DNA from: a virus
Taxonomy: Duplodnaviria; Caudoviricetes
DNA length: 61,725 bases
IMG/VR virus record: IMGVR_UViG_3300043409_000886
Location: 1-61,725 of that record
Direction: 5' to 3' (one strand)
The notes below the pieces were generated by a model. That model ran no database searches, was not told the origin of the DNA, and was given only the letters and a program-made list of their open reading frames with translations. The translations under genes were made by a program, and so were the position numbers. Positions 2,890 to 60,839 of the stretch are shown here, piece by piece. Positions within the stretch are counted from its first letter, which is position 1; each line of letters begins with the position of its first letter.

Positions 2890-2900
2890 TGGAGCACACA

Positions 2901-3728: not shown

Positions 3729-4027
3729 GCCCCGGGTACAGCGCCACCCGGATGAACATGGACGCCGGGGTCACCCCGGCGCAGGGTCGGGTGGTGTTCC
3801 ACATTGAGCGCCTGTTCCGCAGCACCGGGGGCGGCGTCAAGGCGCACGGCACCTTCCTCGCCGCCTGCCGCGTCAAAGGCATCCCCTCCGCGGTGTCGGG
3901 CTACACCCCGACCCGTTGCGTGGAGGTCCTGCAACTGGTAGAATCCGCGTGCCGCCACCACGGCATGCACCTGTTCCGCGACGTCGGCACCGGCTGGCGT
4001 CAAATTAACTTGGAGGTATCAAAATGA
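3725..4027 (+). CDS. Hypothetical protein
   Basis: ATGA overlaps at both ends. Confidence 0.6.
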   Translation: MSPGYSATRMNMDAGVTPAQGRVVFHIERLFRSTGGGVKAHGTFLAACRVKGIPSAVSGYTPTRCVEVLQLVESACRHHGMHLFRDVGTGWRQINLEVSK

Positions 4028-4251
4028 ATTTGACCTATGCAGAAATACAGGCACTGCTGGCGCTGGTAGAGGCAATAGAAGAAATGTTCGCAGCGCCGCA
4101 ACACGATCGCGAAAACGGTGCCGCGTGGCTTAATGAAATTGCTGCCGCAAAATGGGAAAAAGAAAACTCATCACTACTTGCTGCTATGTATGTGCTAAGC
4201 GAGAAAACGGACGCGGTAACAGAGATGTTTAAACTGGAGGTATCAAAATGA
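4024..4251 (+). CDS. Hypothetical protein, AT-rich insert
   Basis: GGAGG RBS; flanked by 18-bp direct repeats. Confidence 0.7.
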   Translation: MNLTYAEIQALLALVEAIEEMFAAPQHDRENGAAWLNEIAAAKWEKENSSLLAAMYVLSEKTDAVTEMFKLEVSK

Positions 4252-4469
4252 ACCTGTTCAAAAAACAACCCGCCAAACCCGCCAACGAGTACCGCCCCGC
4301 CGAGGCCGTCCGCCTCGCCGGGGACCATTGGAGCACCGACCCGGCCGTGCGGGGTGTCAGCGCGGCGACGAGCATCGCCCTGCGCGACACGCCCCGCGAC
4401 GCGTCGGAGGCCTCAATCATGGGCCTGCTGGAGCGGGGAGTGATCCCCCGCGTCAGGGAGTACGTATGA
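4248..4469 (+). CDS. Hypothetical protein
   Basis: GGAGG RBS, ATGA overlap. Confidence 0.65.
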   Translation: MNLFKKQPAKPANEYRPAEAVRLAGDHWSTDPAVRGVSAATSIALRDTPRDASEASIMGLLERGVIPRVREYV

Positions 4470-4645
4470 ACAACATCGACCTGCAGGACTACCTGCCGTG
4501 GGTCGTCTGCGCCACCGTCTGGCTGGCCCTCGTGCCGGTCAGGCTGGTGATCCTGATGCTGCTCCCGGCCAACTCGGGGTACGCGTGGCACCCCTGCAAC
4601 AACCTCTGGCGCCGTGTGAAGTTTGATGGATACCACTGGTCATGA
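4466..4645 (+). CDS. Small membrane protein
   Basis: ATGA overlap; hydrophobic stretch LPWVVCATVWLALVPVRLVILMLL. Confidence 0.55.
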   Translation: MNNIDLQDYLPWVVCATVWLALVPVRLVILMLLPANSGYAWHPCNNLWRRVKFDGYHWS

Positions 4646-4809
4646 GCCGCACCACGCGGTACGGCATCTTGGACGACGCCGGGGAGGTGGTGCGCTGGGT
4701 AGACACCGAGCCCAACGGGCTGGAGTACATCTACTTGGCGCAGCGCGTCCCCCGGCAACCCAAGCGCCCCACGATCGACTGGCTTGCGTTTGAGCCAGCA
4801 CTGCTTTAG
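4642..4809 (+). CDS. Hypothetical protein (55 aa, not in ORF track)
   Basis: ATGA overlap; MSRTTRYGILDDAGEVVRWV...FEPALL*. Confidence 0.6.
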   Translation: MSRTTRYGILDDAGEVVRWVDTEPNGLEYIYLAQRVPRQPKRPTIDWLAFEPALL

Positions 4810-4845
4810 AATATCCACACCAACCACACCACTACGGAGAACACC

Positions 4846-5052
4846 ATGCACCCCGACACAATGCAACTGATCGACAACACCGAGGCCGACTGGAGCCACC
4901 ACGAGTTTTACGTGGACGGCAATGGGCAGTCACACCTCAAGCACCTGCGCTACGGGGACGACTACACCCTCGAGGAGGGCGACCTGCTCGACGCCGTCGA
5001 GGCCGTCCTGCGGGGCGACATCCTCGACTTCGGGGGTGACGATCGTGCTTAA
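4846..5052 (+). CDS. Hypothetical acidic protein
   Basis: Preceded by CTACGGAGAACACCATG. Confidence 0.7.
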   Translation: MHPDTMQLIDNTEADWSHHEFYVDGNGQSHLKHLRYGDDYTLEEGDLLDAVEAVLRGDILDFGGDDRA

Positions 5053-5236
5053 CTTTATTGGCTGGGCTTTGTTGTTGTGGTGCCTCTGGACCATCGAGCG
5101 GGTCGGCGTGAACGCCACGAGCCTCTGGCTGTCCGTTCTGGCCGTCGGCCTCCTGCTGCTCTCCTTTGCGGTCAGGGTGGGCACCAGTGCCTTGCTCTGG
5201 CGCCAGATCGGACGGGTGATAAACCGTGGCCGGTGA
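5045..5236 (+). CDS. Small membrane protein
   Basis: GTG start; two hydrophobic segments. Confidence 0.5.
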   Translation: MLNFIGWALLLWCLWTIERVGVNATSLWLSVLAVGLLLLSFAVRVGTSALLWRQIGRVINRGR

Positions 5237-5798
5237 GCGCACGGCGCTGGGTGACTACCTGCGCACCCTGCACAAGGTGCCCGTCCTCAAGCGCGAGGAG
5301 GAGGCGGAGCTTGGGCGCCGCGCGCAGCTTGGGTGCAAGCCAGCCCTTGACCTGCTGGTCACGCACAACCTGCGCTTCGTGGTCAGCACCGTCAAGGGCA
5401 TGCGGGACTGGGTCAACGTCAGCCTGCCCTACGACGACCTGATCGCCGCCGGCAACGAGGCCATGCTGGAGGCCGCCCGGTCGTGGGTCCCGACCCCCCG
5501 GGCGCGCTTCATCGCCTACGCCAAGCCCTTCATTTTGAGGGGCGTGGTGCGCGCGTGCGACAACGAGGGGAACACCATACGCCTCCCGGTGAATGTGTGC
5601 GAAGAGGTAAGGCTGATGAAGTACCACGAGAACGCCTTGGCGCAGGCCAACGGCGCGGAGCCCACGCAGGCACAGACCGCCGCGGCCATGGGCTCGACAG
5701 CCAAGCGTGTGGGGCAGCTGCGCGGGTTCATCATGCGCGAGCCCAGCAGCATCGAGCTACACCACGAGTCATCCAACGAGGAGCAGGAACATGAGTGA
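5226..5798 (+). CDS. Sigma70-family factor, regions 1.2-2-3 only (no region 4)
   Basis: YLRTLHKVPVLKREEEAELG (1.2), LVTHNLRFVVS (2.1), DDLIAAGNEAML (2.2), RFIAYAK (2.3), TIRLPVN and EPTQAQTAAAMG (3); ends at PSSIE plus an acidic tail. Confidence 0.9.
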   Translation: MAGERTALGDYLRTLHKVPVLKREEEAELGRRAQLGCKPALDLLVTHNLRFVVSTVKGMRDWVNVSLPYDDLIAAGNEAMLEAARSWVPTPRARFIAYAKPFILRGVVRACDNEGNTIRLPVNVCEEVRLMKYHENALAQANGAEPTQAQTAAAMGSTAKRVGQLRGFIMREPSSIELHHESSNEEQEHE

Positions 5799-6198
5799 CA
5801 GCAACAGCAACTACCTGAAGACACCCCCCAACTGGCGCTTTGACGTCGAGGCGGGGCACTACACCGACGAGGCCGAGAGGCTCGCGGGCAACCTATCTGA
5901 GAGTGTGGCGGCGCGCATGAAGGCACTTAACGCTAAGGGCTGGGCTGACGCCTGCGCGGCCACACCAACGGTCGACAACGAGGTGGTGAGGCCGGCGCAC
6001 TACACCCGCGGGGCGGTGGAGTGCATCGACGCCATCGAGGCTGCGCTTACCCCCGAGGAGTACCGTGGCTACCTGAAGGGCAACGTGCTGAAATACTTCT
6101 GGCGCGAGCGCGACAAGGGCGGGCTGCAGTCGATCCAGAAGGCGGAGTACTACACGCAGCGTCTAATCAAATTACTGGGGGAGAAACAAGATGAATAG
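5791..6198 (+). CDS. DUF3310 (T7 gp1.7-like nucleotide kinase family) protein
   Basis: VVRPAHYTRGAVECIDAI...GYLKGNVLKYFWRERDKGG. Confidence 0.8.
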   Translation: MSDSNSNYLKTPPNWRFDVEAGHYTDEAERLAGNLSESVAARMKALNAKGWADACAATPTVDNEVVRPAHYTRGAVECIDAIEAALTPEEYRGYLKGNVLKYFWRERDKGGLQSIQKAEYYTQRLIKLLGEKQDE

Positions 6199-6394
6199 CG
6201 CAGACAGTGGAGCCCTTGTGCCGGTCGTGCTCGTCGTGATGCCGTTACTGGCGGTTACTTTTGCAATTCTTTGCGCGGTGTCGTTCGGCATCAAATCCGC
6301 ATCATCCGACTGGCGCAATGCCTGCGAGAAGCACGGCATGGTTATCTCTGACGGGAAGGTCTACGAGTGCAAGGTTAGGGAGGAAAAGAAATGA
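6191..6394 (+). CDS. Small membrane protein
   Basis: N-terminal hydrophobic helix; overlapping starts and stops. Confidence 0.6.
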   Translation: MNSADSGALVPVVLVVMPLLAVTFAILCAVSFGIKSASSDWRNACEKHGMVISDGKVYECKVREEKK

Positions 6395-6798
6395 ACAACC
6401 AAAGTGAAAAGCCAATTGAAGAATTGCTGCGTGGCATCCCGCAAGATCATCGAATCTGTATCCCATTTCAGTGGGCAGAGGATGGAAGGGAAACAGGACA
6501 TCACTACATGCCTGTAGGGCGGCACGTTCATCAAGCAGCCGACAAAATTACCGCCTTGCGGGAGAAGTTAAAGGAGTGCCACGAGAACGGACAACGATTA
6601 CTTGCCGTTGCAGACTCGTACAAAGAAGTGAACGCCGCCCTGCGGTTAGATGCAGAGCGGTATCGGTGGTTGCGGGAAAAGATTGAAAACCAAAATTTAA
6701 CAATCGCCGTTGCCGATTCTTGGAGTTTGCGAAGTTGGTCGGGCGACAATTCTGACGCATCCATTGACGCAGCTATGAAGGAGGAGGAAAGGAAATGA
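6391..6798 (+). CDS. Hypothetical protein with DAERYRWLR motif (Ead/Ea22-like)
   Basis: DAERYRWLR...DASIDAAM. Confidence 0.7.
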   Translation: MNNQSEKPIEELLRGIPQDHRICIPFQWAEDGRETGHHYMPVGRHVHQAADKITALREKLKECHENGQRLLAVADSYKEVNAALRLDAERYRWLREKIENQNLTIAVADSWSLRSWSGDNSDASIDAAMKEEERK

Positions 6799-6956
6799 CG
6801 CCGAGGCGACGGGTATTGGCGGTCTACAAACAGGCAGAAGTCCACGAGTGGGACAACCACTGGCACATATATTTTGATGGGTACTGTATGGGCAGCGGAA
6901 AGACAGTTGCACTCGCGTGGTCAAACGCAGTTAAACGATTGGAGGCGGTGAAATGA
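6795..6956 (+). CDS. Hypothetical protein (53 aa, not in ORF track)
   Basis: Fills the gap with ATGA overlaps at both ends. Confidence 0.55.
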   Translation: MTPRRRVLAVYKQAEVHEWDNHWHIYFDGYCMGSGKTVALAWSNAVKRLEAVK

Positions 6957-7171
6957 GTGAGTACGCAGACGGGTTTGACGATGGCAAAGGTGAAAAGTTT
7001 GACGAACTGATGCTGGAAATCGTCACCCTGCGGGAGCAGTTGGCTGCCTCTAGGCAAGCGGCAGAGATACATAAACTTCAAGCAGAAAAAAACCATGAAC
7101 TTGCCACAAAATATTACGACTTTTACACCAAAGCCGTGAAAGACCAACTCAAGGAGAAAAATAATGGCTAG
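6953..7171 (+). CDS. Hypothetical coiled-coil protein
   Basis: GGAGG RBS, ATGA overlap. Confidence 0.65.
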   Translation: MSEYADGFDDGKGEKFDELMLEIVTLREQLAASRQAAEIHKLQAEKNHELATKYYDFYTKAVKDQLKEKNNG

Positions 7172-7436
7172 ACACAAACACGCAGACGAGATTTGTGCTT
7201 GGGCAAACGGGGTAGAAATACAGGTTCTTAACGGTGGTAAATGGTTTGATATTTACTACCCATCATGGGAAGCGGACGCCAAGTACCGCATCAAGCCACA
7301 ACCTAAACCAGACTACGAAATTGATAGCGTTATAACCCGCCACGGTGTTACCAGCTCTTGTTCTGGCGAGGCAAACCTCCGCTGTGTCTTTGACGGTGAA
7401 ACGGGCGCACTTAAATCTGCGGAGGTATTGAAATGA
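7164..7436 (+). CDS. Hypothetical protein, paralog A
   Basis: RHKHAD..WA.G.EIQ...YRIKPQPKPD...FDGET..LKSAEV shared with the next gene. Confidence 0.75.
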   Translation: MARHKHADEICAWANGVEIQVLNGGKWFDIYYPSWEADAKYRIKPQPKPDYEIDSVITRHGVTSSCSGEANLRCVFDGETGALKSAEVLK

Positions 7437-7735
7437 GACACAAACACGCAGACCTGATCCACGCGTGGGCTGACGGGGCAGAGATACAACAAAATGTTCC
7501 CCAGTTTCAGGGGGAGATTTATACTACTAAGTGGTTTGATGACCCCGACCCCCTGTGGTGTTTATTGGCTGAGTACCGCATCAAGCCGCAACCTAAACCG
7601 GACTTTGAAATTCATCTTTACGTAATATATGACTCGCTTTATACAACCGCTGTTTGCAAAAGCGGCACACCAAATGTGCGCTACGTCTTTGACGGCGAAA
7701 CTAACAAACTTAAATCTGCGGAGGTAATAAAATGA
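7433..7735 (+). CDS. Hypothetical protein, paralog B
   Basis: Tandem paralog of 7164-7436. Confidence 0.75.
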   Translation: MRHKHADLIHAWADGAEIQQNVPQFQGEIYTTKWFDDPDPLWCLLAEYRIKPQPKPDFEIHLYVIYDSLYTTAVCKSGTPNVRYVFDGETNKLKSAEVIK

Positions 7736-7962
7736 GTGACAAGACAGGTGGGTCAGCGTATCCAATTATAGGCATACGCGAAATATATGGGCAACCGATG
7801 CAGAACATAATCGCTGACGGCATGACCCTGCTCGATCATTTTGCAGGACAGGCGATGCAGTTGTACCCCATGCTGCACGACGAGGCGGCCGCAAAGTGTA
7901 GCTACGACAGAGCGGAGGCAATGATAAAAGAAAGGGAGGAGCGCAATGAACGAAGGTCTTGA
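7732..7962 (+). CDS. Hypothetical protein
   Basis: GGSAYP...GMTLLDHFAGQAM...AEAMIKER, a common phage motif. Confidence 0.7.
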   Translation: MSDKTGGSAYPIIGIREIYGQPMQNIIADGMTLLDHFAGQAMQLYPMLHDEAAAKCSYDRAEAMIKEREERNERRS

Positions 7963-8170
7963 ACATCGCTTCTATGTTCCTTCTGAATACTGGGATGAAT
8001 GGTACAAGATCGTACATGACAATAACCTCAGTAGATTTGCGCTTGGCTCAACCGGAGTCGAGAACGGTATCAAGAAAAATTCAGATCATTGGAACGTACA
8101 AGCAAATCTTCGCGCCGAAGCTGAAGGCTTACCACCACGCGAGAACTTACTACTAAGGGAATTCAAATGA
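7946..8170 (+). CDS. Hypothetical protein
   Basis: GGAGGAG RBS. Confidence 0.6.
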   Translation: MNEGLEHRFYVPSEYWDEWYKIVHDNNLSRFALGSTGVENGIKKNSDHWNVQANLRAEAEGLPPRENLLLREFK

Positions 8171-8373
8171 ACGAACGGATTAGAGAACTTGCCATAGAAG
8201 CCGGGGCTGTGGTGTACGGATGCGGTTACGGCACACTTGATTTTGATGTAGAAAAGTTTGCCGAGTTGATTGTGCGGGAATGTGCTGACTTTGTTGCCGC
8301 CGGAGAATTTGGTGACCCCGGAACCGCCAAAATGTTAATGGAAGATTTTGGAGTGGAGGAGAAGAACGAATGA
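8167..8373 (+). CDS. Hypothetical protein
   Basis: MNERIRELA...EKFAELIVRECA motif. Confidence 0.7.
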   Translation: MNERIRELAIEAGAVVYGCGYGTLDFDVEKFAELIVRECADFVAAGEFGDPGTAKMLMEDFGVEEKNE

Positions 8374-8591
8374 AAAAACGAATACAAAAACTTTTAAATC
8401 TTGCCGTAAAAGATGAGGTTGAGGTACACGTTGTGCATGAAACGGCAAAGGTGCGCCACAGAGGAATATACCTAGATGGCGTGTACACAAGAGGTATGGC
8501 CATAGTTATCAAGCAAGAAGCTGAACAGATACTGGATTTCTTTGCCCGTCAAGACACAGCATTGAAGAAGTCAATGGAGAAAACAAAATGA
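8370..8591 (+). CDS. Hypothetical protein
   Basis: ATGA overlaps. Confidence 0.6.
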   Translation: MKKRIQKLLNLAVKDEVEVHVVHETAKVRHRGIYLDGVYTRGMAIVIKQEAEQILDFFARQDTALKKSMEKTK

Positions 8592-8785
8592 CCAAACCAG
8601 TGGATAGGTTCGACCTCGAGCAGGCCATACTCAATTGTTGGGGAATCACAAGTGACCTGCGCATGGCGGCTGAGGGGCGGGCCAACGCCGAACTTCTCAA
8701 CGCCATGGCGGTGCTGTATGATGCGAGGTTTGAAGTTCTGTTTAAGGTACTAACAACCATGATTGAGGAAAGGAAGTTTAAATGA
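8588..8785 (+). CDS. Hypothetical protein
   Basis: DRFDLEQAILNCW motif; RBS GGAG. Confidence 0.65.
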   Translation: MTKPVDRFDLEQAILNCWGITSDLRMAAEGRANAELLNAMAVLYDARFEVLFKVLTTMIEERKFK

Positions 8786-8985
8786 AAAAAGCCAGACTGG
8801 AGTACGTAATGGACGCACGGGGCGAGCTTCAAAAGATCGTGGCAACAGACGCGGTGACGGGGAAGCATTTGGTGGACGTGCTCTGGGACCCCACGGACGA
8901 GCACACGGAGGAGAACCTCGCCGAGTTTGAGGTTTGGGCTAAAAGAATGTTAAAGCGGCTCCAATTCGAGGTTGATGCGGCGTAG
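8782..8985 (+). CDS. Hypothetical protein
   Basis: ATGA overlap; last gene of the early block. Confidence 0.65.
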   Translation: MKKARLEYVMDARGELQKIVATDAVTGKHLVDVLWDPTDEHTEENLAEFEVWAKRMLKRLQFEVDAA

Positions 8986-9014
8986 GCGATGTACCGGGAG
9001 GCATCAAACCGGCA

Positions 9015-9038
9015 GCCGAGGTACCTAAGTACCTCGGC
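9015..9038. terminator. Hairpin between convergent genes
   Basis: GCCGAGGTAC-CTAA-GTACCTCGGC. Confidence 0.45.
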
Positions 9039-9787
9039 TATTCTTGGACGTACTTGTTGTGTTTTGAGCTGTTCTCGGAAGCAGTTATGATCTGAAGATT
9101 TGCAGCAATGTGCAGACCCGACACATTGCGACCCTGCAAAGGGATCACGTGGTCCACGGCGTGTTGTATGCCCGTCACCCTCGTGCGCTCAGCGCACAGC
9201 ACATAGACCGCCTCAATCTCGGCTCGCTGCTCCTGTGTCAACCAAGGTGGTGTCCGCTGCAGCTTGGCCGCACGGCGGCGCGCGGTTTTTGCGTTGATTT
9301 TGCCGGGGTGCGCCTTTGCGTATTTGGCTCGGTAGGCGGCAGCTTTTTCCACGTTTGCTGCGCGATACACGGCGTGGCGGGCGGCAACCTTCGCGACGTT
9401 GGCCTCATAATACTTGGCGTTGTGGGCGGCAGCCTTCTCCGGGTTTGCCCTACGATATTCGGCTTGATAGGCGGCAACCTTCTCGACGTTGGCCACACGA
9501 TACAAGGCTCGTTGGGCGGCAACCTTCTCGACGTTGGCCACACGATACAAGGCTTGCTGGGCGACAACTTTCTCAAAACTTTCAGGGCTAAGCCAACCCT
9601 CATAAAGAAGCCCGGTCTTTTTAGCTATTGCGGCTCCATACCCTTGGAACCTGCGCCCATCAGCCCGGGTGTCCCCATACCTGAACGGCACCCCAGTGGC
9701 CGGGTTAATGCGCCTGAGCGATACAGACGGCTTCAAGCCCTCAATGTTGACGGGCAAGGATTCAGGTAAAACGGGAGTGTGGTTCAA
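9038..9787 (-). CDS. HNH homing endonuclease with 15-aa helical repeats
   Basis: C-terminal VDHVIPLQGRNVSGLHIAANLQIITASENSSKHN; central YRVANVEKVAA repeats. Confidence 0.85.
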   Translation of the reverse strand: MNHTPVLPESLPVNIEGLKPSVSLRRINPATGVPFRYGDTRADGRRFQGYGAAIAKKTGLLYEGWLSPESFEKVVAQQALYRVANVEKVAAQRALYRVANVEKVAAYQAEYRRANPEKAAAHNAKYYEANVAKVAARHAVYRAANVEKAAAYRAKYAKAHPGKINAKTARRRAAKLQRTPPWLTQEQRAEIEAVYVLCAERTRVTGIQHAVDHVIPLQGRNVSGLHIAANLQIITASENSSKHNKYVQE

Positions 9788-9886
9788 GATAGAGCTCCAG
9801 TACGCTAAGGTGAGGTGGAAGGCTGCCTAGTTGCGGTACTGGCCACAACAAGATTTGCAAATCGGTTCGGCAGCTTCCTGTAACTA

Positions 9887-9914
9887 CTTATGCAAAAAAT
9901 TGGGGACAACCGCC
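9887..9914 (-). promoter_or_regulatory. Phage promoter class GGCG-N18-YATAAG
   Basis: GGGGCG-N18-CATAAGT upstream of the HNH gene. Confidence 0.7.
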
Positions 9915-9949
9915 CCAATGTTTTGCCTTGTTACAAATTGTTACAATTA

Positions 9950-10079
9950 TGTACACAGGTGTCAAGAAGTCGACAGTTTTGCGTATGTTAAGTATGGGTA
10001 GTGATAGTATATTTGACTTTATTTAATTTTAAAAAAGAGAGAAAGAGAAATATACTGGGAGTAACTCATTTAGACCCTG
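9950..10079. repeat. ~130-bp AT-rich element, inverted copy at 60840-60968 (candidate origin)
   Basis: Two near-identical blocks flanking a variable A/T-rich core. Confidence 0.9.
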
Positions 10080-10249
10080 CCAAGGGTTACTTGCCTGCCA
10101 ATTGTGTACAATCCGCCGCCCCAGCACCTTATGGAATCTCAAAAACCCTCCACAACGCGCTACAAGCCACGCAGGCACCTTTTGGCTACTACCCCCTATT
10201 CGCTGTTCGCGAACCCCGCTGGCGCTGGCCTGACAAGCCCGGAGCCCCC

Positions 10250-10277
10250 TTGACAACCCTTTCGTAGTTTGTATAAG
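10250..10277 (+). promoter_or_regulatory. Promoter class TTGACA-N16-TATAAG for the replication operon
   Basis: TTGACA ACCCTTTCGTAGTTTG TATAAGT. Confidence 0.65.
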
Positions 10278-10299
10278 TGAAGTATAACCGGAGAGCACT

Positions 10300-10824
10300 G
10301 TGAAGATTTACATTGGACCCTACATAAACTGGACTGGACCCTATCAGATCGCCGACCTCCTGCGCTACGTTGGCGTTAAGGAGGACGCCCGCCACAGGGC
10401 CGGGGAGTGGCTCTCCAAGACCCGGGTCAACCAACTCTGCGAGTGGCTGGAGTCAAAGCGCCACCGCACCATAAAGGTACGGATCGACCCCTACGACACG
10501 TGGTCGATGGATTCCACCCTATCGCTCATCATTTTGCCCATGCTGGTGCAGCTGGCGGCGAACAAGCACGGAGCACCCTTCACGGACGACGCCGACGTGC
10601 CCGAGCACCTGCGCTCCACCAGCGCCCCGCCCAAGGAGAATGAGTGGGACACCGACGCCCTGCACTTCGTCCGGTGGGACTGGATACTAAACGAAATGAT
10701 ATGGGCCTTCCAGCGCACCAGCGACAAGGTGACGGACGGGATTGAGTTTGACGAGACGCTAAGGGCCCGGGAGGCCAAAGGCTTCCAGCTCTTCGGCAAA
10801 TATTACCGCGCACTTTGGGACTGA
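10300..10824 (+). CDS. Conserved phage hypothetical protein
   Basis: GGAG RBS; IDPYDTWSMDSTLSLIILPML...WDWILNEMIWAF...LFGKYYRALWD. Confidence 0.75.
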   Translation: MKIYIGPYINWTGPYQIADLLRYVGVKEDARHRAGEWLSKTRVNQLCEWLESKRHRTIKVRIDPYDTWSMDSTLSLIILPMLVQLAANKHGAPFTDDADVPEHLRSTSAPPKENEWDTDALHFVRWDWILNEMIWAFQRTSDKVTDGIEFDETLRAREAKGFQLFGKYYRALWD

Positions 10825-10825
10825 C

Positions 10826-13165
10826 ATGCAAAACACCACACAGACACAGACAAACAACAAACCGACCGCACTGCCGGTCCAGTTCGGCAACATCCCGCTA
10901 CCCCTCAGGCAGGTGCCCCGTTGGGTGCTCTGGAGCCACGTGCTGGTCGGGGAGGGCGACAAGTCCCGCTGGTCGAAGCTCCCCCTCCAAGCCTCAGGCC
11001 GCTCCGCCTCATCGACCAATCCAGCCACATGGGCGGGCTATATTGAAGTCGAGGCGGCGTACGCCTCCGGGAATTTTGACGGGGTGGGGTTCGTGTTCGA
11101 TGGGACCGACCAGCTGGTCGGGATCGACCTCGACGACTGCTACGACACCGCCACCAACCGTTTCACAAATGCTGCACTGCAGCAAATAGCCACCTCCGTG
11201 GAGGGTTACATGGAGGTCAGCCCCTCAGGGACGGGGGTGAAGCTCTTCACCTTGGCCGACCTGCCGGGGGCGCACGTCGACCACACCTTGGGGCTGGAGG
11301 TCTACCCCAAGGGGCGCTACTTCACGGTGACGGGTCACAAGCTCTCGGGTGAGATACCGACCACCCCGCAGGACCTGACGAGCCACATACCGGCACGCGC
11401 GGTGAAGCTCTCGGGTGACGACTTCGCGGACTACTCGCCCCCCGTGGAGGGGTACGACATGCCACGGGTGCGGGACGAGGTGCTCTCCCAGATCGACCCG
11501 GACTGTGGCTACACGGACTGGCTCACCGTCGGGATGGCGCTGCACCACCAGTTCGGTGGCTCGGTGGAGGCACAGGAGCTCTGGGACGAGTGGTCCTACC
11601 AAGACGGGGCCTGCGGTGCCTACACCCCGGGGGCCTGCGAGCGGAAGTGGTCCAGCTTCACCCGCAAGGGCGGCGCCACCCTGCGGAGCCTGACCTTCAA
11701 GGTCTCCGCGGCCAAGCGCACCGTGGCGCTCGCCCGGGGCGAGGTCGTCCTCGACGGGGGTCAGCCCCTCGTGCACGCCCGGGAGTTCCTGAGCTCCATG
11801 TACGCCTCCGAGGAGGGCACCAAGCTGGTGCACTACGCGGACGACTTCTTTATCCACGTCGGGACGCACTACGAGGAGATCGAGGAGGCCACGATACGGT
11901 CGCACCTGTACCGCTTCTTGGAGAAGTGCAAGACGCAGGACAAGAAGGGGAACGTCGTCCCGTTCAGGGCGCAGCCGGCCACCGTGACGGCCGGCCTCGA
12001 CGCCATCAAGGCCCTGACGCACTTGGCCAACCAGCCCAACACCCGCCCGCCCGTCTGGCTGGAGGGCTACGCCGCCACCCGCCCCCCGGCGGCGAAGCTG
12101 ATAAGCCTCCAGAACGGGCTGTTCCACTTGGAGGACGGCCTGCTGATGCCGCACAGCTTGGGGTTCTTCACGCAGAACAGCCTCCCCTTTGGCTGGGAGC
12201 CGGGCGCCACGTGCCCGGAGTGGAACAAGTTCTTGGGCGACATCTGGGGGGACGACGCCGAGTCGATACGGCTCCTGCAGGAGTTCTTCGGGTACATCCT
12301 CTCGGGTGACACCCGGCAGCAGAAGCTCCTGAACGTGATTGGACCGCGCCGGTCGGGGAAGGGCACCATCAACAAGGTGCTGGTCTCCCTGCTGGGGCAG
12401 CACAACACGGCCGCCCCGCAGCTGGAGGAGCTGTGCGACACCTTCGGCCTGCAGCCGTGGCTCGGGAAGCTCCTCGCCAGCTTCACGGACGCGCGCGCCC
12501 CCTCACGCAACACGGGGGGCATCGTCTCCCAGCTGCTGCGGATCGTGGGTGGCGACACCGTGACCGTGAACCGCAAGAACAAGGAGGCGTGGCACGGTTA
12601 CCTCCCGGCGCGGATCGTGGTCTACTCCAACGAGGCGCTGCAGTTGGCGGAGAACTCGAACGCGCTGACGGGTCGCATGATGGTCCTGAAGATGAGCAAC
12701 AGCTTCTACGGCAGGGAGGACATCGACTTGGCCACCCGGCTGGGGACGGAGCTGCCCGGGATATTCAACTGGGCGATGGAGGGGCAGCGCAACAGGCTGC
12801 AGCGTGACGGGCAGCGGTTCATACAACCCGCCACGGGGCGCGAGATGCTGGAGCTGATGGAGGAGATCGGTAACCCGATTGGCTCCTTCCTCGAGCGTGT
12901 GCTGGTGTTCGACACGGACAGCGTGGTGGAGAAGGACCACGTCTTCGCGTGCTACAAACGCTGGGCGCTGTCCAAGAACATCAACCCCGGGACGGACCTC
13001 TCCTTCAAGCGGCGCTTCTTGGCCGCCACGTCGGACAGGCGCGTCATATCCGCGCTCGACCGGAGCGGGGGCCTGCAGCGTCACGTCTACCGCGGGGTCA
13101 AGTTCAGCGACGCCGCACAGAAATTTGTCGACTCACTTGAGGCTTTCAACGAGGAGGTATTTTGA
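10826..13165 (+). CDS. Primase-polymerase/helicase (AEP-type N-term, PriCT-2, D5-like SF3 helicase)
   Basis: GIDLDDC, EVSPSGTG, EVY.KGRYFTVTG; W..VGMALH..WDEWS; Walker A GPRRSGKGT. Confidence 0.9.
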   Translation: MQNTTQTQTNNKPTALPVQFGNIPLPLRQVPRWVLWSHVLVGEGDKSRWSKLPLQASGRSASSTNPATWAGYIEVEAAYASGNFDGVGFVFDGTDQLVGIDLDDCYDTATNRFTNAALQQIATSVEGYMEVSPSGTGVKLFTLADLPGAHVDHTLGLEVYPKGRYFTVTGHKLSGEIPTTPQDLTSHIPARAVKLSGDDFADYSPPVEGYDMPRVRDEVLSQIDPDCGYTDWLTVGMALHHQFGGSVEAQELWDEWSYQDGACGAYTPGACERKWSSFTRKGGATLRSLTFKVSAAKRTVALARGEVVLDGGQPLVHAREFLSSMYASEEGTKLVHYADDFFIHVGTHYEEIEEATIRSHLYRFLEKCKTQDKKGNVVPFRAQPATVTAGLDAIKALTHLANQPNTRPPVWLEGYAATRPPAAKLISLQNGLFHLEDGLLMPHSLGFFTQNSLPFGWEPGATCPEWNKFLGDIWGDDAESIRLLQEFFGYILSGDTRQQKLLNVIGPRRSGKGTINKVLVSLLGQHNTAAPQLEELCDTFGLQPWLGKLLASFTDARAPSRNTGGIVSQLLRIVGGDTVTVNRKNKEAWHGYLPARIVVYSNEALQLAENSNALTGRMMVLKMSNSFYGREDIDLATRLGTELPGIFNWAMEGQRNRLQRDGQRFIQPATGREMLELMEEIGNPIGSFLERVLVFDTDSVVEKDHVFACYKRWALSKNINPGTDLSFKRRFLAATSDRRVISALDRSGGLQRHVYRGVKFSDAAQKFVDSLEAFNEEVF

Positions 13166-13884
13166 AAAAGATTAAGTACCCGTACTACAACATCGACTGC
13201 GGCTTCTTCCCGGCGCAGATCAAGCTCTGCTTCAACGACGCGGACTTCCAACGCATCCTCAAGGACCACAAGATCGAGTACCGCGCCAACGCCCTCGACG
13301 AGGGGTGCGCCGAGACGCACTACTTCTCCGATGGGAAGGAGGGGCTGATCGTCCTCGCCATCGACTTGGAGGTGGCGGGGACGGACGTCGCGGTGGTGGC
13401 GGGCACCGTGGCGCATGAGGCCACGCACTGCGCCGAGCGGGTCTTCGAGCACATCGGGGAGGAGCGCGACAGGATCGGGGAGGAGACACGGGCCTACTTG
13501 ACTGAGCACATTGTGGCGCAGTCGATGAAGGCGATCGAAATGTACCGGAGGGACTATGCAAGCAAAATCAAAAAACCCGCTCGAGAGGGAGATAGAAAAG
13601 ACGTTGGTAAAAAAGGTCAAGGCGGCGGGGGGACTGTGCCTGAAGTGGACAAGCAGCGTGACGGGGGTGCCGGACAGGCTGGTGTTCCTGAACCGGCGGG
13701 TGCACCTCGTGGAGCTGAAGACCGCGACGGGAAAGGTATCACCCCGCCAGATCGTGATGTTCAAACTACTATCCACGCTTGGGTTCCCCGTCTGGATTCT
13801 AAGGAGTACAACCGAAATAGAAAGGTTCCTCGAGCAGGCACCACGCTTGGAATAGAAAGGTACCCCAATGAAACAGAAAAGTGA
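13162..13884 (+). CDS. HExxH (zincin-like) protein whose tail overlaps the VRR-NUC gene
   Basis: TTGA coupling to the primase stop; AHEATH...EETRAY. Confidence 0.6.
   Translation: MKKIKYPYYNIDCGFFPAQIKLCFNDADFQRILKDHKIEYRANALDEGCAETHYFSDGKEGLIVLAIDLEVAGTDVAVVAGTVAHEATHCAERVFEHIGEERDRIGEETRAYLTEHIVAQSMKAIEMYRRDYASKIKKPAREGDRKDVGKKGQGGGGTVPEVDKQRDGGAGQAGVPEPAGAPRGAEDRDGKGITPPDRDVQTTIHAWVPRLDSKEYNRNRKVPRAGTTLGIERYPNETEK
13556..13855 (+). CDS. VRR-NUC domain nuclease
   Basis: GGAGG RBS; ERE.E..L...GG.C.K....GVPDRL...VELKT..GK....Q. Confidence 0.85.
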   Translation: MQAKSKNPLEREIEKTLVKKVKAAGGLCLKWTSSVTGVPDRLVFLNRRVHLVELKTATGKVSPRQIVMFKLLSTLGFPVWILRSTTEIERFLEQAPRLE

Positions 13885-15223
13885 TCTGCACCAGTACCAG
13901 CTCGATGTTCTCAAATTGGGTACGATCGTCCCCAATTTGAGTACGATCACCCCCAATTTGGGGCTGTTCATGGAGCCGGGCCTCGGTAAGACTGTCACCG
14001 CGCTGACACTAATAGCCGAGAGTCCGTCGGGCAGGACGCTGATCGTGGCCCCCAAGCGGGTGGCGGAGTCGGTCTGGGCCGAGGAGTGCCAGCAGTGGGC
14101 ACACCTTGCCCACCTGCGCGCCTCCAAGGTCATGGGGACCCCCAAGGAGCGTCTGGCGGCGCTCGAGGTCAAGGCCGACCTCTACATCACCAACGTCGAG
14201 AACTTGGTCTGGCTGATTGAGCAGGGAGCCAAGTTCGACTACCTGATCGTGGACGAGTCGAGCCGGTTCAAGGACCCCTCCTCGAAGCGTTTCAAGGCGC
14301 TCAAGAAGGTGCTCAAGGACTTCAGGCGCCGCTTCATCCTGACCGGCACCCCCACGCCGCAGGGGTACGCCGACCTGTGGGCTCAGGTGGGCATCCTCGA
14401 CTTGGGGCAGCGACTGGGTAAGTCCATGACGAGCTTCAGGCAGACCTACATGCACGTCACCGACCGCAACCACCGCACGGGTGTGGTCTACGCGTGGGGG
14501 CTTAATGATGGCGCCGCCGGCGTGATCGAGGGGAAGATAAAGGACATCTGCGTCTCCTTGAAGGCCGCGGACTACCTGCAGCTGCCCCCGCTCATGAACG
14601 TGGAGCACAGGCTGCCGCTCGACGCGGATGTCATGGCGAAGTACAAGGAGCTGAAGAAGACCATGGTGGTGGAGATAGCCGGCGACACGGTGACCGCAGT
14701 AACAGCCGCCGTGCTGGCCGGGAAGCTGTTACAATTCACATCCGGTGCGGTCTACAACGAAGAGAAAGAGGCGCTGCATGTACACGACACGAAGATTGAA
14801 TTTCTCGAATCAATTATTGAGGAGGCAAACGGAGCGCCGACAATCATATTTTACAATTTCCAATCGAGCCTCGCCCGACTGCAGCGCGCCCTCCCCTACG
14901 GACGCGTACTACAGACCAGTTACATCGAGCCTTGGCGAGAGGGACGAGTCCCCGTACTCTTCGCCCACCCCCAGTCCGGGGGGATTGGACTAAACCTGCA
15001 GTGCAACACCCACGAGGTGGCGCACTGCGTCTGGTTCGACCTCCCGTGGTCGAGCGAGCTGTACATACAGGCCAACGCGCGGGTCTACAGGCAGGGACAG
15101 TTGAAGCCAGTCGTGCTCCATCACCTTATAGCTGCCGACACAATCGACGAGCAGGTACTTGAAGTGCTCGCCGGTAAGATAAACACTCAGGCCGCTTTAC
15201 TTGCGGCCCTAAATTTGCATTAG
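13868..15223 (+). CDS. SNF2-like SF2 helicase
   Basis: MEPGLGKT, IVDESS, LTGTP, SGGIGLNLQ, QANARVYRQGQ. Confidence 0.9.
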   Translation: MKQKSDLHQYQLDVLKLGTIVPNLSTITPNLGLFMEPGLGKTVTALTLIAESPSGRTLIVAPKRVAESVWAEECQQWAHLAHLRASKVMGTPKERLAALEVKADLYITNVENLVWLIEQGAKFDYLIVDESSRFKDPSSKRFKALKKVLKDFRRRFILTGTPTPQGYADLWAQVGILDLGQRLGKSMTSFRQTYMHVTDRNHRTGVVYAWGLNDGAAGVIEGKIKDICVSLKAADYLQLPPLMNVEHRLPLDADVMAKYKELKKTMVVEIAGDTVTAVTAAVLAGKLLQFTSGAVYNEEKEALHVHDTKIEFLESIIEEANGAPTIIFYNFQSSLARLQRALPYGRVLQTSYIEPWREGRVPVLFAHPQSGGIGLNLQCNTHEVAHCVWFDLPWSSELYIQANARVYRQGQLKPVVLHHLIAADTIDEQVLEVLAGKINTQAALLAALNLH

Positions 15224-15229
15224 TATATA

Positions 15230-15547
15230 ATGAAACCCACAACCTATGTAATGAACAAAGCATCCCCCCGACTGTCTGACGAGGAGCCCGACCCACTGGA
15301 GCGGGACGACCCGGACGACGACCCACTGCACGAGAGCGGGGACCGGGGGCTGCCGTGGGACAGCGACGACCTCCTAGACATCCGCAACATTGTCGACGAG
15401 TTGCCGGTGGAGCAGCAGGAGATAGTGGAGGCGATGCTGCTGGGGCAGAACCACGAAGACCTCGAGGTCACGGAGAAGTACTGGCGGTACCACCTCGCCA
15501 AGGCCGTGGCAACGATCCGCAGGAAAATGGGAATTAACTTAATTTAG
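15230..15547 (+). CDS. Stand-alone sigma region-4-like protein with acidic N-terminus
   Basis: DIRNIVDELPVEQQEIVEAMLLG...HLAKAVATIRRKM resembles sigma 4.1/4.2; likely leaderless (CATTAG-N6-ATG). Confidence 0.6.
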   Translation: MKPTTYVMNKASPRLSDEEPDPLERDDPDDDPLHESGDRGLPWDSDDLLDIRNIVDELPVEQQEIVEAMLLGQNHEDLEVTEKYWRYHLAKAVATIRRKMGINLI

Positions 15548-15561
15548 AAAAGGAGCAAAAT

Positions 15562-15756
15562 ATGGAACAGCCGCAACTTAAGTTTAGTTTTTCGTTGGAC
15601 GAGACAAACGCCATCCTCACCATCCTTGGGGACGCACCCTACATCCGATCGGCGAAGCTCATCGCGCTGATACAGAAGCAGGGCGCAGACCACACCGCCG
15701 AGATTGAGGCCTACGAGGCCGCACAGCGCGATAAGACGGTGCACCCCAATGAGTGA
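15562..15756 (+). CDS. Hypothetical protein
   Basis: AAGGAG RBS. Confidence 0.7.
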   Translation: MEQPQLKFSFSLDETNAILTILGDAPYIRSAKLIALIQKQGADHTAEIEAYEAAQRDKTVHPNE

Positions 15757-15940
15757 CGCACCCTTCCAGAAAACCCCCGCGGCGACCCTCGTGAGCGCCA
15801 TGGAGCCCACCCACAAACTCGACCCCAAGCGGGCGGAGCTGGCGGGCGCCATCACCCGGACGATCATCAATCAGGCGCTCACCGAGGTGCGCCGTGTCAA
15901 GGAACACATGGCCAAACAGGAGGGCGAGAAGGGTAAATAA
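15749..15940 (+). CDS. Hypothetical protein
   Basis: ATG at 15749 overlaps the upstream stop. Confidence 0.55.
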   Translation: MSDAPFQKTPAATLVSAMEPTHKLDPKRAELAGAITRTIINQALTEVRRVKEHMAKQEGEKGK

Positions 15941-15950
15941 TTTGTATAAG
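15923..15950 (+). promoter_or_regulatory. Phage promoter class GGCG-N18-YATAAG
   Basis: GGGCG AGAAGGGTAAATAATTTG TATAAGT. Confidence 0.7.
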
Positions 15951-16052
15951 TGGTTATAGGGGGATCAATATAAAGACGCCCGGGGTTGGCATAGCTCGCC
16001 ACCGGGCACCCCTTTCCCCATAATTTACTGTACAGTAAAAGAGAGAATAAAA

Positions 16053-16433
16053 ATGGCTACAAAGTACGACCCAAAAATGTTGCCCACTATCCTCGAGATG
16101 GGGAAAGCCGGCGCGTCTCAAAAGATGATCTGGTCGGTGCTGGGTATATCCAGCTCCACCGCAGCCGCGTGGAAGAAGAAGTACCCCGACTTCGCGGAGA
16201 CCCTCGACTTGGCGCTGGTGCACTCACAGGCGCACTGGGAGCGGACGATGCTGGCCAACGCGGAAAATAAAAACTTCAACACCCGCATGGTAGAGATTGC
16301 CGTGAGGGGGCAGTTCCCGCTCGACTACAAGGAGCAGCGCGAGCAGAAGGTGGAGGTCAAGGCCGACGTCAACATCGACTTTGGCGCCGCCGTGACCGAC
16401 CTGATAAAGCAACTGAAAGATACAAAAGACTAA
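16053..16433 (+). CDS. terS: Putative terminase small subunit (HTH)
   Basis: TKYDP...G.S......LGIS.ST...WKKKYPDFAE.L, typical TerS N-terminus; own late-class promoter and terminator. Confidence 0.6.
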   Translation: MATKYDPKMLPTILEMGKAGASQKMIWSVLGISSSTAAAWKKKYPDFAETLDLALVHSQAHWERTMLANAENKNFNTRMVEIAVRGQFPLDYKEQREQKVEVKADVNIDFGAAVTDLIKQLKDTKD

Positions 16434-16456: not shown

Positions 16457-16488
16457 TAAAAATAGGAGCCCTAGGCTCCTATTTTTTT
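16457..16488. terminator. Bidirectional intrinsic terminator overlapping a TATAAG -10
   Basis: AAAAAATAGGAGCC-CTA-GGCTCCTATTTTTTT. Confidence 0.75.
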
Positions 16489-16531
16489 GTATAAGTAGTT
16501 ATACGACTAACCAGAGTGAAAAGGACTAAAC

Positions 16532-18059: not shown

Positions 18060-18098
18060 TGTCAGAAAAACTACCCTGTTTTTCTGACAAAAAAAGAT

Positions 18099-18126
18099 TT
18101 GCTATTTGGCTCGGAGTTTGTATAAG
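18099..18126 (+). promoter_or_regulatory. Promoter class TTG-type -35, N16, TATAAG
   Basis: TTGCTA TTTGGCTCGGAGTTTG TATAAGT. Confidence 0.6.
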
Positions 18127-18202
18127 TGTAGGTAAGCAAGGGGCAGACGCGCCGCCCCCCACTGAAGTGCGGCGCTTTCGTAGTTACTAGGAGATTTAAA
18201 CC

Positions 18203-33325: not shown

Positions 33326-33360
33326 TTGGCCTTTGGGTTCCCGTGAGCTTCCTATATCTA

Positions 33361-33388
33361 CTTATACAGAAAAACAGTGTTATCCGCC
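33361..33388 (-). promoter_or_regulatory. Phage promoter class GGCG-N18-YATAAG
   Basis: GGGCG-N18-TATAAGT. Confidence 0.7.
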
Positions 33389-33640
33389 CTACTGCGTGTC
33401 GCCATTTACGACGGTAATAAACTGCCTCGCCCACTCACGCCAGTCCTCGAAGGGCGCGGGGTCTATGCCCCCATACACCGAGAAGGTCGGGAGCAGAACC
33501 ACCCCGCTCGCCAGCTGTTTCCAGTCTGGCTCCGCGACGTACGGGAGGGGCTCCTCACCGAAGTAGTGCAGCATGTTGCCGTTCCAATCTGACCACGACA
33601 TGCCATCGGGGAGGAACGGTATGGCCTGACTTATCGTCAC
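33389..33640 (-). CDS. Hypothetical virion-associated protein
   Basis: GTGA overlap; Trp-rich (F.DWREWA). Confidence 0.65.
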
Positions 33641-40021: not shown

Positions 40022-40076
40022 GGTAACCTCGAGGTTAGTGTTTGTCGGATCGCGGAGTGGCCTACTCCTATAACCA

Positions 40077-40104
40077 CTTATGCAAAAAACGGGGTGTTTT
40101 CGCC
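40077..40104 (-). promoter_or_regulatory. Phage promoter class GGCG-N18-YATAAG
   Basis: GGGGCG-N18-CATAAGT. Confidence 0.7.
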
Positions 40105-40105
40105 C

Positions 40106-40633: not shown

Positions 40634-40681
40634 CTCCTACGTAACCTTCACCCGACACTAATACAAAGTCGGCGCCAGAAG

Positions 40682-41128
40682 TCAAGCGCCGTACTTCCTC
40701 GTCCCGGCTCGGTCAATAATTAGTGCGCTTCGCCTCGGCGCGTCACTCAGGGTGTTTGGCACTGAGATGTGGGTCCACCCACCACCTTGGGGGGTCGCAA
40801 ACTCGCGTATGACCTGATCGAAGGGGAGGTTGGAGTCAACCACACGCCGCACCACCTCGTCCGGGGTCATTCCGGGTACGCGGAGGTCTGCGGCGCAGCC
40901 CAGCCTGTGCTGGCTGGTGTCCTTGGAGCCCACCACGTCATTGACGGCCTTGGAGCGATAGGCTGAGGTGATTATAACTGGCTTGCCCCCGAGCAGGGTC
41001 TTGAGTTCCTCCAGCAGTACGGCGAGGCGCCTGAGGTTGAGCAGCGCCCGCTCGTCGGGGGTGTTGTCGAGGGTGCGGTGGCTGGTGCAGGTCAGCTCGG
41101 CGTAGCTGAAGTGCTCACTGAGCTGCAT
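40682..41128 (-). CDS. Peptidase M15 family endolysin
   Basis: LSEHFS..EL, ITSAYRS..VN..VGS...SQHRLGCAAD, WTHIS. Confidence 0.88.
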   Translation of the reverse strand: MQLSEHFSYAELTCTSHRTLDNTPDERALLNLRRLAVLLEELKTLLGGKPVIITSAYRSKAVNDVVGSKDTSQHRLGCAADLRVPGMTPDEVVRRVVDSNLPFDQVIREFATPQGGGWTHISVPNTLSDAPRRSALIIDRAGTRKYGA

Positions 41129-49158: not shown

Positions 49159-49253
49159 GTCGGTTTCCTTACTTAGAGGTTGCCCCAAACAGTCACTAAG
49201 CTGTCGACCCGGAAGTGTTGGCCGTCTGGGTGGGGTGAATCTTCCTATAACTA

Positions 49254-49281
49254 CTTATACAAAAACTGGGCTAAATTCGCC
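49254..49281 (-). promoter_or_regulatory. Phage promoter class GGCG-N18-YATAAG
   Basis: GGGGCG-N18-TATAAGT. Confidence 0.7.
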
Positions 49282-49292
49282 CCAAAACCTAC

Positions 49293-53284: not shown

Positions 53285-53291
53285 ATATTAA

Positions 53292-53319
53292 CTTATGCAA
53301 AACAAATGCAACATCCGCC
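53292..53319 (-). promoter_or_regulatory. Phage promoter class GGCG-N18-YATAAG
   Basis: GGGCG-N18-CATAAGT. Confidence 0.7.
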
Positions 53320-53322
53320 CTA

Positions 53323-58029: not shown

Positions 58030-58066
58030 GGCGCCGTCGTTGTGGTTGTTTGGGTACCTATAACCA

Positions 58067-58094
58067 CTTATGCAAAAAATCAGGGGTTACCGCC
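58067..58094 (-). promoter_or_regulatory. Phage promoter class GGCG-N18-YATAAG
   Basis: GGGGCG-N18-CATAAGT. Confidence 0.7.
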
Positions 58095-58129
58095 CCAGAT
58101 ATTAGGCGTAAGCGCCCGTAGAGCCTAAA

Positions 58130-60742: not shown

Positions 60743-60748
60743 AACCTA

Positions 60749-60776
60749 CTTATACAAAAATGTGTACACACCCGCC
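60749..60776 (-). promoter_or_regulatory. Phage promoter class GGCG-N18-YATAAG
   Basis: GGGGCG-N18-TATAAGT; ATG 6 nt downstream. Confidence 0.7.
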
Positions 60777-60839
60777 CCAGCCAAAGTTTATTTTCATACC
60801 AAGGGGCGGTTTTACGATTGTAAGGGAAGTAACAGAAGA

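Follow-up and report, generated by a model that had tools for sequence, protein, structure and literature searches.

The window analysed here, the whole 61,725-bp record IMGVR_UViG_3300043409_000886 of an uncultured phage (Caudoviricetes) in IMG/VR, on balance probably encodes a sigma factor that is divided between two genes, of which the larger product would read TTTG-YATAAGT and the smaller GGGCG at the −35 position. The larger is a truncated sigma70-family protein of 190 aa (5226..5798, plus strand), which holds regions 1.2, 2 and 3.0/3.1 followed by a 12-residue acidic disordered tail, with no region 4. The smaller is a stand-alone sigma region-4-like protein of 105 aa (15230..15547, plus strand), in which an acidic disordered segment carrying PRLSDEEPDPLE (residues 1–44) precedes a three-helix domain (residues 45–100). 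A preliminary description of this DNA, made from the sequence alone, had proposed such a two-gene sigma, with the second protein supplying the missing domain in trans as a middle-to-late switch. That interpretation is partly supported: the architecture of the two proteins is well supported, whilst the mechanism, in which the sigma alone reads YATAAGT and the small protein binds RNA polymerase and reads GGGCG, is purely what we infer.

The two proteins and their families

With regard to the 190-aa protein, Pfam Sigma70_r1_2 matches it at 30.3 bits (cut-off 22) and Sigma70_r2 at 23 bits, just below the cut-off of 24, with Sigma70_r3 reaching only E 0.83, and PHROG 351 ('RNA polymerase sigma factor') matches at 1.2e-19. 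A profile of its family aligns with solved SigA, RpoD and RpoS chains from the PDB at up to E 9e-32 over query residues 10–179, an alignment that spans region 1.2 through 3.1 and ends at REPSSIE, the equivalent of the EPISMET/EPVSLET stretch closing region 3.1; beyond this point only 12 acidic residues remain. The AlphaFold2 (AF2) model has a predicted local distance difference test (pLDDT) score of 81, with helices in residues 122–171 at ~77–90 and a disordered tail at 177–190. When searched with Foldseek, its top 50 matches are all sigma chains of holoenzymes (E 2e-9), displaying a sigma2–sigma3 architecture, and both this search and the PDB profile search place the protein closest to primary and group-2 sigmas. 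It possesses regions 1.2 and 2 as well as region 3.0/3.1, but carries no region 4 on the same polypeptide, and Pfam r4 and r4_2 find no match in the six frames of the window at E≤1. The downstream gene, 5791-6198, overlaps the sigma stop and is DUF3310 by Pfam, not sigma. Pfam, profile, AF2 and Foldseek results thus agree with the original account of a gene for sigma70 regions 1.2, 2 and 3 that stops cleanly, is overlapped by its neighbour and lacks region 4.

Positions in region 2.4 and region 3.0 of sigma70 contact the −10 and extended −10 elements. In region 2.4 of the phage protein, the YATWWIRQA of SigA is replaced by YAKPFILRG, with the Tyr retained and the Trp pair lost, a substitution that would fit an altered −10 specificity, and the region-3.0 Glu is invariant as E126 in the family alignment.

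At least 218 viral contigs hold the sigma and at least 459 the small protein, and 80 of each were examined. The reading frame is 186–219 aa from the first possible start in 80/80 related viral loci, two of which run off contigs, and the same stop is seen in 78/80, the remaining two again being those that run off. The six closest database proteins (44–99 % identity) are 190–191 aa, and 25/25 aligned members end 12–13 residues past REPxSL(D/E). Because the same end is kept across relatives, the truncation is not local, a possibility that the preliminary description had named as one that would tell against its proposal. Amongst 50,697 phage genomes, the best sigma matches show ≤36 % identity.

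In the AF2 model of the 105-aa protein, helices at residues 45–57, 60–70 and 82–100 have pLDDT values of ~90–95 and residues 1–44 are disordered. The N-terminal motif PRLSDEEPDPLE is near-invariant, with a family form of (P/x)(R/K)LSDEExDP(L/I/M)E that is present even in the most divergent members, and a similarly near-invariant VTEKYWRYH opens the last helix, a putative recognition helix. Comparison of the model with 48,161 PDB chains using VIA-align returned sigma region-4 domains at ranks 1–21 and 23, rank 22 being 9n9q_C, a chain of an RNA-guided transcription complex. The best match, 2h27_D, is Escherichia coli sigmaE region 4 on −35 DNA (Z 8.9, rmsd 2.8, 62/69 residues aligned). The top Foldseek rows are mostly sigma region 4 (sigma4) as well, with weak E-values of 0.04–2, and the BFVD list comprises one uncharacterised homologue followed mostly by phage sigma factors. 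Alignment of family profiles by hhalign is in register on region 4.1–4.2, with P 8.3e-5 (probability 60 %) against three extracytoplasmic function sigmas and P 0.0069 against RpoD, RpoS, RpoH and FliA of one proteobacterial metagenome-assembled genome. Both alignments contain a 4–5 residue gap in the first helix of the helix–turn–helix (HTH), which is ~4 residues short. The protein therefore has the helical fold and C-terminal HTH of sigma region 4, but not Pfam sequence membership; Sigma70_r4_2 is matched by more members of the small family than any other Pfam family, yet by 4/20 only, with a best E of 0.0037. The AF2 model, the VIA-align result and the hhalign gap conform to the earlier reading of this gene as an acidic segment plus a region-4-like unit with a slightly shortened HTH, and the absence of a sigma4 fold, which would have spoken against the proposal, is contradicted by Foldseek, VIA-align and hhalign.

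A profile search of 1.84 billion representative proteins produced 36 matches at E≤1e-3, nearly all of 33–129 aa, amongst which no member fused to a sigma2–3 module was found and two long repetitive proteins look spurious. Another of the matches, P0049 (229 aa), shares the N-terminal acidic motif and first helices with the small family before continuing into unrelated sequence, and may be a fusion or a gene-calling artefact. The BFVD list also contains stand-alone proteins of 80–100 aa from other uncultured phages that are annotated 'Sigma70_r4 domain containing' (e.g. A0A6J5SLI7 and A0A6J5LB75); free-standing sigma4 modules may accordingly be commoner in phages than this one family.

The acidic N-terminal segment was also considered. 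Global alignment to a proteobacterial RpoD tail sets PRLSDEEPDPLE on PIGDDEDSHLGD, and the two are collinear, the acidic motif lying ~45 residues before the LPxxQ helix in the small protein versus 41 in RpoD. The score of this alignment is not above that of composition-preserving shuffles for the whole protein (z ~1.0, 76/500 reaching it), nor is that of the N-terminal part against the RpoD tail (z ~1.25, 121/1000), and the hhalign alignments with sigmas do not extend into the acidic region. It is possible, although rather doubtful, that the sigma is cut at the region 3.1/3.2 boundary as a developmental timer, two specificities arising by domain supply in trans as one holoenzyme passes from −35-independent middle promoters, among them that of the second piece, to the GGGCG-N18-YATAAGT late promoters, with the PRLSDEEPDPLE motif acting as sigma finger/3.2 linker and the C-terminal domain as a DNA-reading sigma4. 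Of these components, the putative sigma finger is unsupported.

Promoter classes and conservation of the pair

The motif YATAAGT occurs 13 times in the window, compared with 4.7 expected, and 11 of these occurrences are directly preceded by TG and a T-rich run. Sites of the form GGGCG-N18-YATAAGT are here termed class A, and YATAAGT sites without GGGCG class B. GGGCG exactly 18 bp upstream of YATAAGT is found at eight sites, against a mean of 0.155 and a maximum of 2 in 200 approximate dinucleotide shuffles. One of these is on the plus strand, at 15922..15951 (YATAAG at 15945; GGGCG-N18-TATAAGT), upstream of a small-terminase-like gene (16053-16433, PHROG terS match). The other seven are on the minus strand: 9886..9915 (YATAAG at 9892), which overlaps a short hairpin and lies upstream of an HNH/endonuclease VII-like gene (9038-9787); 33360..33389 (33366), upstream of large unannotated minus-strand genes without family matches (31017-32951 onward); 40076..40105 (40082), upstream of 38855-40021; 49253..49282 (49259), upstream of 48601-49188 and the minus-strand block that follows; 53291..53320 (53297), upstream of 52665-53093 (GroES-like) and 51649-52644; 58066..58095 (58072), upstream of 56464-58029; and 60748..60777 (60754), upstream of the large-terminase open reading frames (ORFs) 59557-60558 and 58130-59737. 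All but the last, which falls within a doubtful small ORF, are intergenic (7/8). Class A sites thus precede the terS-like gene, the HNH gene, the terL ORFs and five further minus-strand operons, i.e. packaging, lysis or presumed virion genes in 8/8 cases.

Three YATAAGT sites without GGGCG precede genes of a different kind, namely the primase-to-small-protein operon, the exonuclease gene and the genes for single-stranded DNA-binding protein (SSB), ribonucleotide reductase and DNA polymerase. The first, at 10250..10278 (plus strand, TTGACA-N16-TATAAGT), heads the replication operon 10300-15756, which includes the sigma4-like gene. The second, at 16467..16496 (plus strand), consists of TTTTTTTG-TATAAGT directly after a hairpin, with no −35-like element, upstream of the exonuclease gene 16532-17665. 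The third, at 18098..18127 (plus strand), has a TTGCTA-type upstream hexamer and lies upstream of the SSB, ribonucleotide reductase and DNA polymerase genes. Hexamers of the TTG type are found at the same offset at 10272, 18121, 15218 and 40663, the last two with YATTAGT: the former is a possible weak site at 15195..15224 (plus strand, TTTACT-N16-CATTAGT), 6 nt 5′ of the ATG of the sigma4-like gene, and the latter lies at 40657..40686 (minus strand, TTGACT-N16-TATTAGT), upstream of the endolysin gene 40106-40633. No YATAAGT site precedes the sigma gene in the window, and a host sigma70-type scan upstream of that gene gave 0 sites in 1-5300.

These sites bear unevenly on the motif set originally described. 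GGCG at a fixed distance before late genes is borne out by the eight sites and by the same spacing in relatives, and the TG of the TG-YATAAGT motif directly abuts YATAAGT at 11/13 sites; the form TGNYATAAG, conversely, has a single match, at chance level. A further site, 16490, has neither a TTG-type nor a GGCG upstream element. The TTG-type hexamers described at 10250, 18099, 15196 and 40658-40685 are real, but a separate TTG class is not characteristic of the family: correctly spaced hexamers are confined to this phage and its ~97 % relatives, and in 45–55 % relatives the sequence upstream of the GGGC-less promoters is simply rich in A/T. The TTG-type sites could equally be used by host sigma70.

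Several GGGCG elements have local structure. That of the 9892 (minus strand) site lies in a 7-bp hairpin (9899–9919) with T runs on both strands, resembling a bidirectional terminator, and several other class A sites of the window have 4-bp GGGG/CCCC stems that are not conserved in relatives. An explanation of GGGCG plus T run as a terminator was rejected, as no complementary arm is conserved across relatives. As for RNA data, the only lake metatranscriptome run found (5 % of sampled words) yielded contigs of 90–95 % relatives, without transcript starts; one such contig has its first base at 18160, 33 nt past the 18121 site, but nothing follows from this.

The two genes are found together in related phages, as the preliminary description had proposed to check. 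Amongst 26 sigma loci with ≥9.9 kb of downstream sequence, 18 hold the small gene 5.2–9.7 kb downstream on the same strand. In seven of the remaining eight records it lies just beyond the flank or elsewhere, and the sole record without it is 24 kb long and judged 37 % complete, such that both genes are present in 25/26 testable records. Reciprocally, the sigma is present in 14/17 small-protein loci with ≥9.9 kb upstream, the other three being on contigs already counted. At one locus (L071) a divergent small protein lies upstream of the sigma instead. Of two divergent members of the small family, P0040 gave no locus and P0037 gave one 12-kb locus, L176, a viral contig of 11.9 kb and 37 % GC (versus 60 % here) that keeps the order of the pair, with a sigma of 181 aa and a small protein of 96 aa. 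The module on this contig runs from early small genes through sigma, primase, SNF2 helicase, sigma4-like protein and terS-like gene to exonuclease; its genes are tightly packed without intergenic gaps, and no YATAAGT-type motif was found in it.

Of 265 unique YATAAGT contexts in the window and 165 loci, 48 have a GGGC beginning 23 nt upstream, and any other offset is seen ≤4 times. The family consensus for class A is taGGGCg-N-tTtTG-CATAAGT-aGataTAGG, the upstream part being taGGGCg.aaa..g......tTtTG, and the GGGC-less class in relatives combines an A/T-rich upstream region with a common TTTG-cATAAGT-AG core. In 41 loci with both genes, which are not independent, GGGC-type sites make up 0/30 plus-strand sites between sigma and small gene, some of the 30 being inside coding sequence and probably not promoters, versus 15/19 sites within 1.5 kb after the small gene. 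Three of the other four have GGACG at the same offset, a variant that can be found alongside GGGCG within one phage. A sigma gene has a site upstream of it in one case only. Gene order and the positions of the promoter classes, GGGC-type sites first appearing shortly after the small gene, fit the middle-to-late switch of the preliminary description. Upstream of the small gene, TTTG-CATTAGT is present in 11/67 unique upstream regions; as it overlaps the last codons and stop of the helicase gene, a dedicated small-gene promoter is inseparable from coding constraint.

Proposed mechanism, known systems and rival explanations

Since no YATAAGT site precedes it, the sigma gene is presumably expressed by the host polymerase. 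The 190-aa protein (1.2–3.1) would then bind core RNA polymerase as any sigma2–sigma3 module does, and would recognise TTTG-YATAAGT with region 2 and with those residues of region 3.0 that usually contact an extended −10. By itself it would suffice at the −35-less, TG-extended promoters heading the replication genes and the operon of the 105-aa gene. Once made from the replication operon, the 105-aa protein would supply the missing region 4 in trans, docked at the sigma4 position, and could read GGGCG centred ~21 bp upstream of YATAAGT, a recognition that would turn on the packaging, virion and lysis operons. Polymerase binding, the assignment of each element to one protein and the timing are all matters that we infer.

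Sigma70 lacking region 4 is known as a laboratory truncation. This precedent would account for how TTTG-YATAAGT promoters without a −35 might be used by the 190-aa protein alone, with the difference that the truncation in this phage is natural and conserved. Amongst divided sigmas, phage T4 is the obvious comparison, with a late −10-type element of TATAAATA. According to the available account, T4 gp55 plus gp33 (with the gp45 sliding clamp) has been called a split sigma, acting at late promoters without an evident −35; it resembles the present pair in combining a truncated phage sigma with a small acidic partner in the place of sigma4, and in its A/T-rich late −10-type element. The phage sigma described here, by contrast, keeps 1.2–3.1 and aligns with primary sigmas as noted above, its small partner has a predicted helix at the position of the sigma4 recognition helix, and class A has a fixed element at the −35 position (8/8 window sites and 48 family sites). 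No clamp or clamp-loader gene turned up amongst the proteins scanned, in which no dedicated search for one was made. The SigO–RsoA pair of Bacillus subtilis and Sig7–Sig8 of Tn916 likewise divide a sigma between two proteins; according to a 2026 bioRxiv preprint, −10 and −35 recognition comes from the two together, and each associates with RNA polymerase. These pairs are group-4-like, amount jointly to no more than regions 2 and 4, and are cellular or borne on an integrative and conjugative element, whereas here a group-1/2-like sigma is cut between 3.1 and 4, in a lytic-type phage, with the genes 5–10 kb apart. SPO1 gp34/gp33 provides a third parallel, pairing a late sigma without a domain present in sigmaA with a small second protein of 101 aa; the available text of a 2026 Nucleic Acids Research paper presents gp33 as an inhibitor of sigmaA-dependent transcription contacting beta, beta′ and sigmaA region 4, and does not describe it as a sigma4 module.

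With its −35-position element and an architecture other than group 4, the split sigma proposed here falls outside both the T4 type and the SigO–RsoA type. Split sigmas being already known, this comparison suggests that the novelty lies in the primary-like large piece, in a small piece resembling a DNA-reading sigma4, and in domain supply as a temporal switch. No literature on this family of phage sigmas and small proteins was found in the main texts of open-access papers and bioRxiv.

A number of observations weigh against this interpretation. The 105-aa protein has zero Pfam matches and misses all Pfam sigma4 cut-offs, and a PDB sequence-profile search with it returned nothing significant, its best sigma match (E 0.45) being to a different region. 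The VIA-align Z of 8.9 is in the range where the tool warns of a common small helical arrangement; as a Z near 8 alone can mislead, the argument for a sigma4 fold rests on the uniform identity of the top rows. The shortened first HTH helix could mean that DNA reading is lost, as in T4 gp33. The related loci represent one syntenic phage lineage, with many contigs overlapping or near-identical, and co-occurrence and promoter positions could therefore be co-inherited without a functional link. Neither the recognition helix (TEKYWRYH) nor GGGCG varies in the main family, and so no covariation links the helix to the −35 element. The TTG-type site at 40663, at the class B offset, precedes endolysin, a late function, and several GGGCG elements of the window lie in short hairpins followed by T runs. 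On the putative binding of RNA polymerase, a complex prediction for residues 40–105 of the small protein with E. coli RpoB 825–1062 gave a median score of 0.26 (mark 0.32), which speaks neither for nor against it. Neither Foldseek nor VIA-align had the T4 gp33/beta-flap structure amongst the rows listed, an absence that likewise carries no weight.

Some of these points lend weight to other explanations. The 105-aa protein might be a gp33-like co-activator or free-standing late activator with a sigma4-type fold that is not docked on the flap but assists or licenses the truncated sigma at late promoters, GGGCG then being read by that activator or another factor. This is improbable, but deserves to be taken seriously: besides the shortened HTH and the missed Pfam cut-offs, LuxR/FixJ-type regulators appear in the same VIA-align list (Z 4.4–6.4), and in T4, as far as the available account goes, a sigma2-like protein acts with a small acidic partner. 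The regulators, however, rank lower in that list, whose ranks 1–21 and 23 are all sigma4 domains; a tblastn search of 50,697 phage records with the small protein gave no match at E≤0.01; and class A has a conserved element at the −35 position and spacing, whereas no −35 is evident at T4 late promoters in that account.

Considerably less probable is that the 105-aa protein is a sigma4 mimic acting on the beta flap or host sigma70 and shutting off host −35-dependent transcription, with the truncated sigma alone serving all YATAAGT promoters and GGGCG being, for example, a repressor site or terminator remnant. Extended −10 promoters can be served by sigma70 that lacks region 4, and the acidic disordered tail of the small protein, its production from the replication operon and the hairpin-plus-T-run contexts of some GGGCG elements would suit this role. 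Its weakness is that the GGGCG offset is fixed in relatives that lack a conserved complementary arm, and that GGGCG before late genes versus GGGCG-less sites before replication genes calls for a class-specific factor. Finally, the two genes may be mere neighbours, without a shared function, in a conserved replication module, the small protein binding DNA for replication or packaging. Whilst its gene does lie between the SNF2 helicase and small-terminase-like genes, and synteny alone would yield the co-occurrence, the sigma4 fold is exactly the domain missing from the phage's own sigma and the pair persists from 60 % to 37 % GC genomes, making mere proximity very unlikely. A split sigma with separate readers for the two elements remains the interpretation that we favour on balance.

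Genome context and significance

IMG/VR lists the record, a whole virus with an estimated completeness of 95 %, as linear. Its final 141 bases reappear at the start with one extra 54-nt repeat unit (1-195 versus 61585-61725), and thus its two ends overlap, pointing to a terminal repeat or a circular assembly. The only hint to the host is one metagenome-assembled genome contig labelled Gammaproteobacteria. On the plus strand, the genes from ~300 to 23,358 are small ones of early type, the sigma gene, which belongs to the leftward early block, and those of the replication module, with a D5-type primase-helicase, SNF2 helicase, exonuclease, gp2.5-like SSB, ribonucleotide reductase and DNA polymerase. 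The sigma4-like gene is placed between the SNF2 helicase and small-terminase-like genes. Minus-strand genes, running from ~61 kb down to 23.4 kb, include the large-terminase ORFs, endolysin, a GroES-like protein and a glycine-rich protein, as well as many large proteins without a family match.

Several other features of the window were observed. The large terminase consists of two overlapping minus-strand ORFs within 58130-60558, of which 59557-60558 matches N-terminal and 58130-59737 C-terminal parts of terL profiles; a frameshift, an error in sequencing or a gene that is truly split could each account for this. A 99-aa ORF (13556-13855, plus strand), in a different frame within the 3′ part of a 240-aa ORF (13162-13884), is a candidate VRR-NUC nuclease-like gene by eye only. 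GC content is ~0.50 in the small-gene block at 6000-10000, after the sigma gene, versus ~0.60–0.64 elsewhere, and two glycine-rich or tail-fibre-like genes (42165-45588) have a third-position GC (GC3) of ~0.4 versus 0.8–0.9 for most genes; both regions may be recent acquisitions. A non-coding array of ~54-nt palindromic repeats occupies 16-218 and 61534-61690, each repeat carrying TGGCACG-N4-TTGCT on both strands, with a lone non-palindromic copy at 204-218 (plus strand), ~80 nt 5′ of the first plus-strand ORF. Perfect matches in the window number 13, of which 12 are in the terminal array, and 18 are found with one mismatch tolerated, compared with 5.6 expected; amongst related loci, 13/164 have a perfect match, mostly 4–6 kb upstream of the sigma gene on the opposite strand. 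This sequence equals the sigma54 −24/−12 consensus, and the repeats could represent a sigma54-dependent early promoter, or a protein-binding or packaging repeat.

The phage lineage in question is uncultured, widespread and abundant in lake metagenomes. If the split is real, it would constitute a natural experiment on sigma modularity, in which sigma2–3 and sigma4 are made as distinct polypeptides at different times, each sigma state having clean and conserved promoter motifs of its own. Two questions would then become directly testable, namely whether a sigma4 without a covalent link to sigma2–3 finds the beta flap and the −35 element, and whether domain supply in trans serves as a middle-to-late switch. 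The pair would also offer compact orthogonal parts for synthetic transcription control, and a protein family that is now nameless and without a Pfam model would gain a functional annotation.

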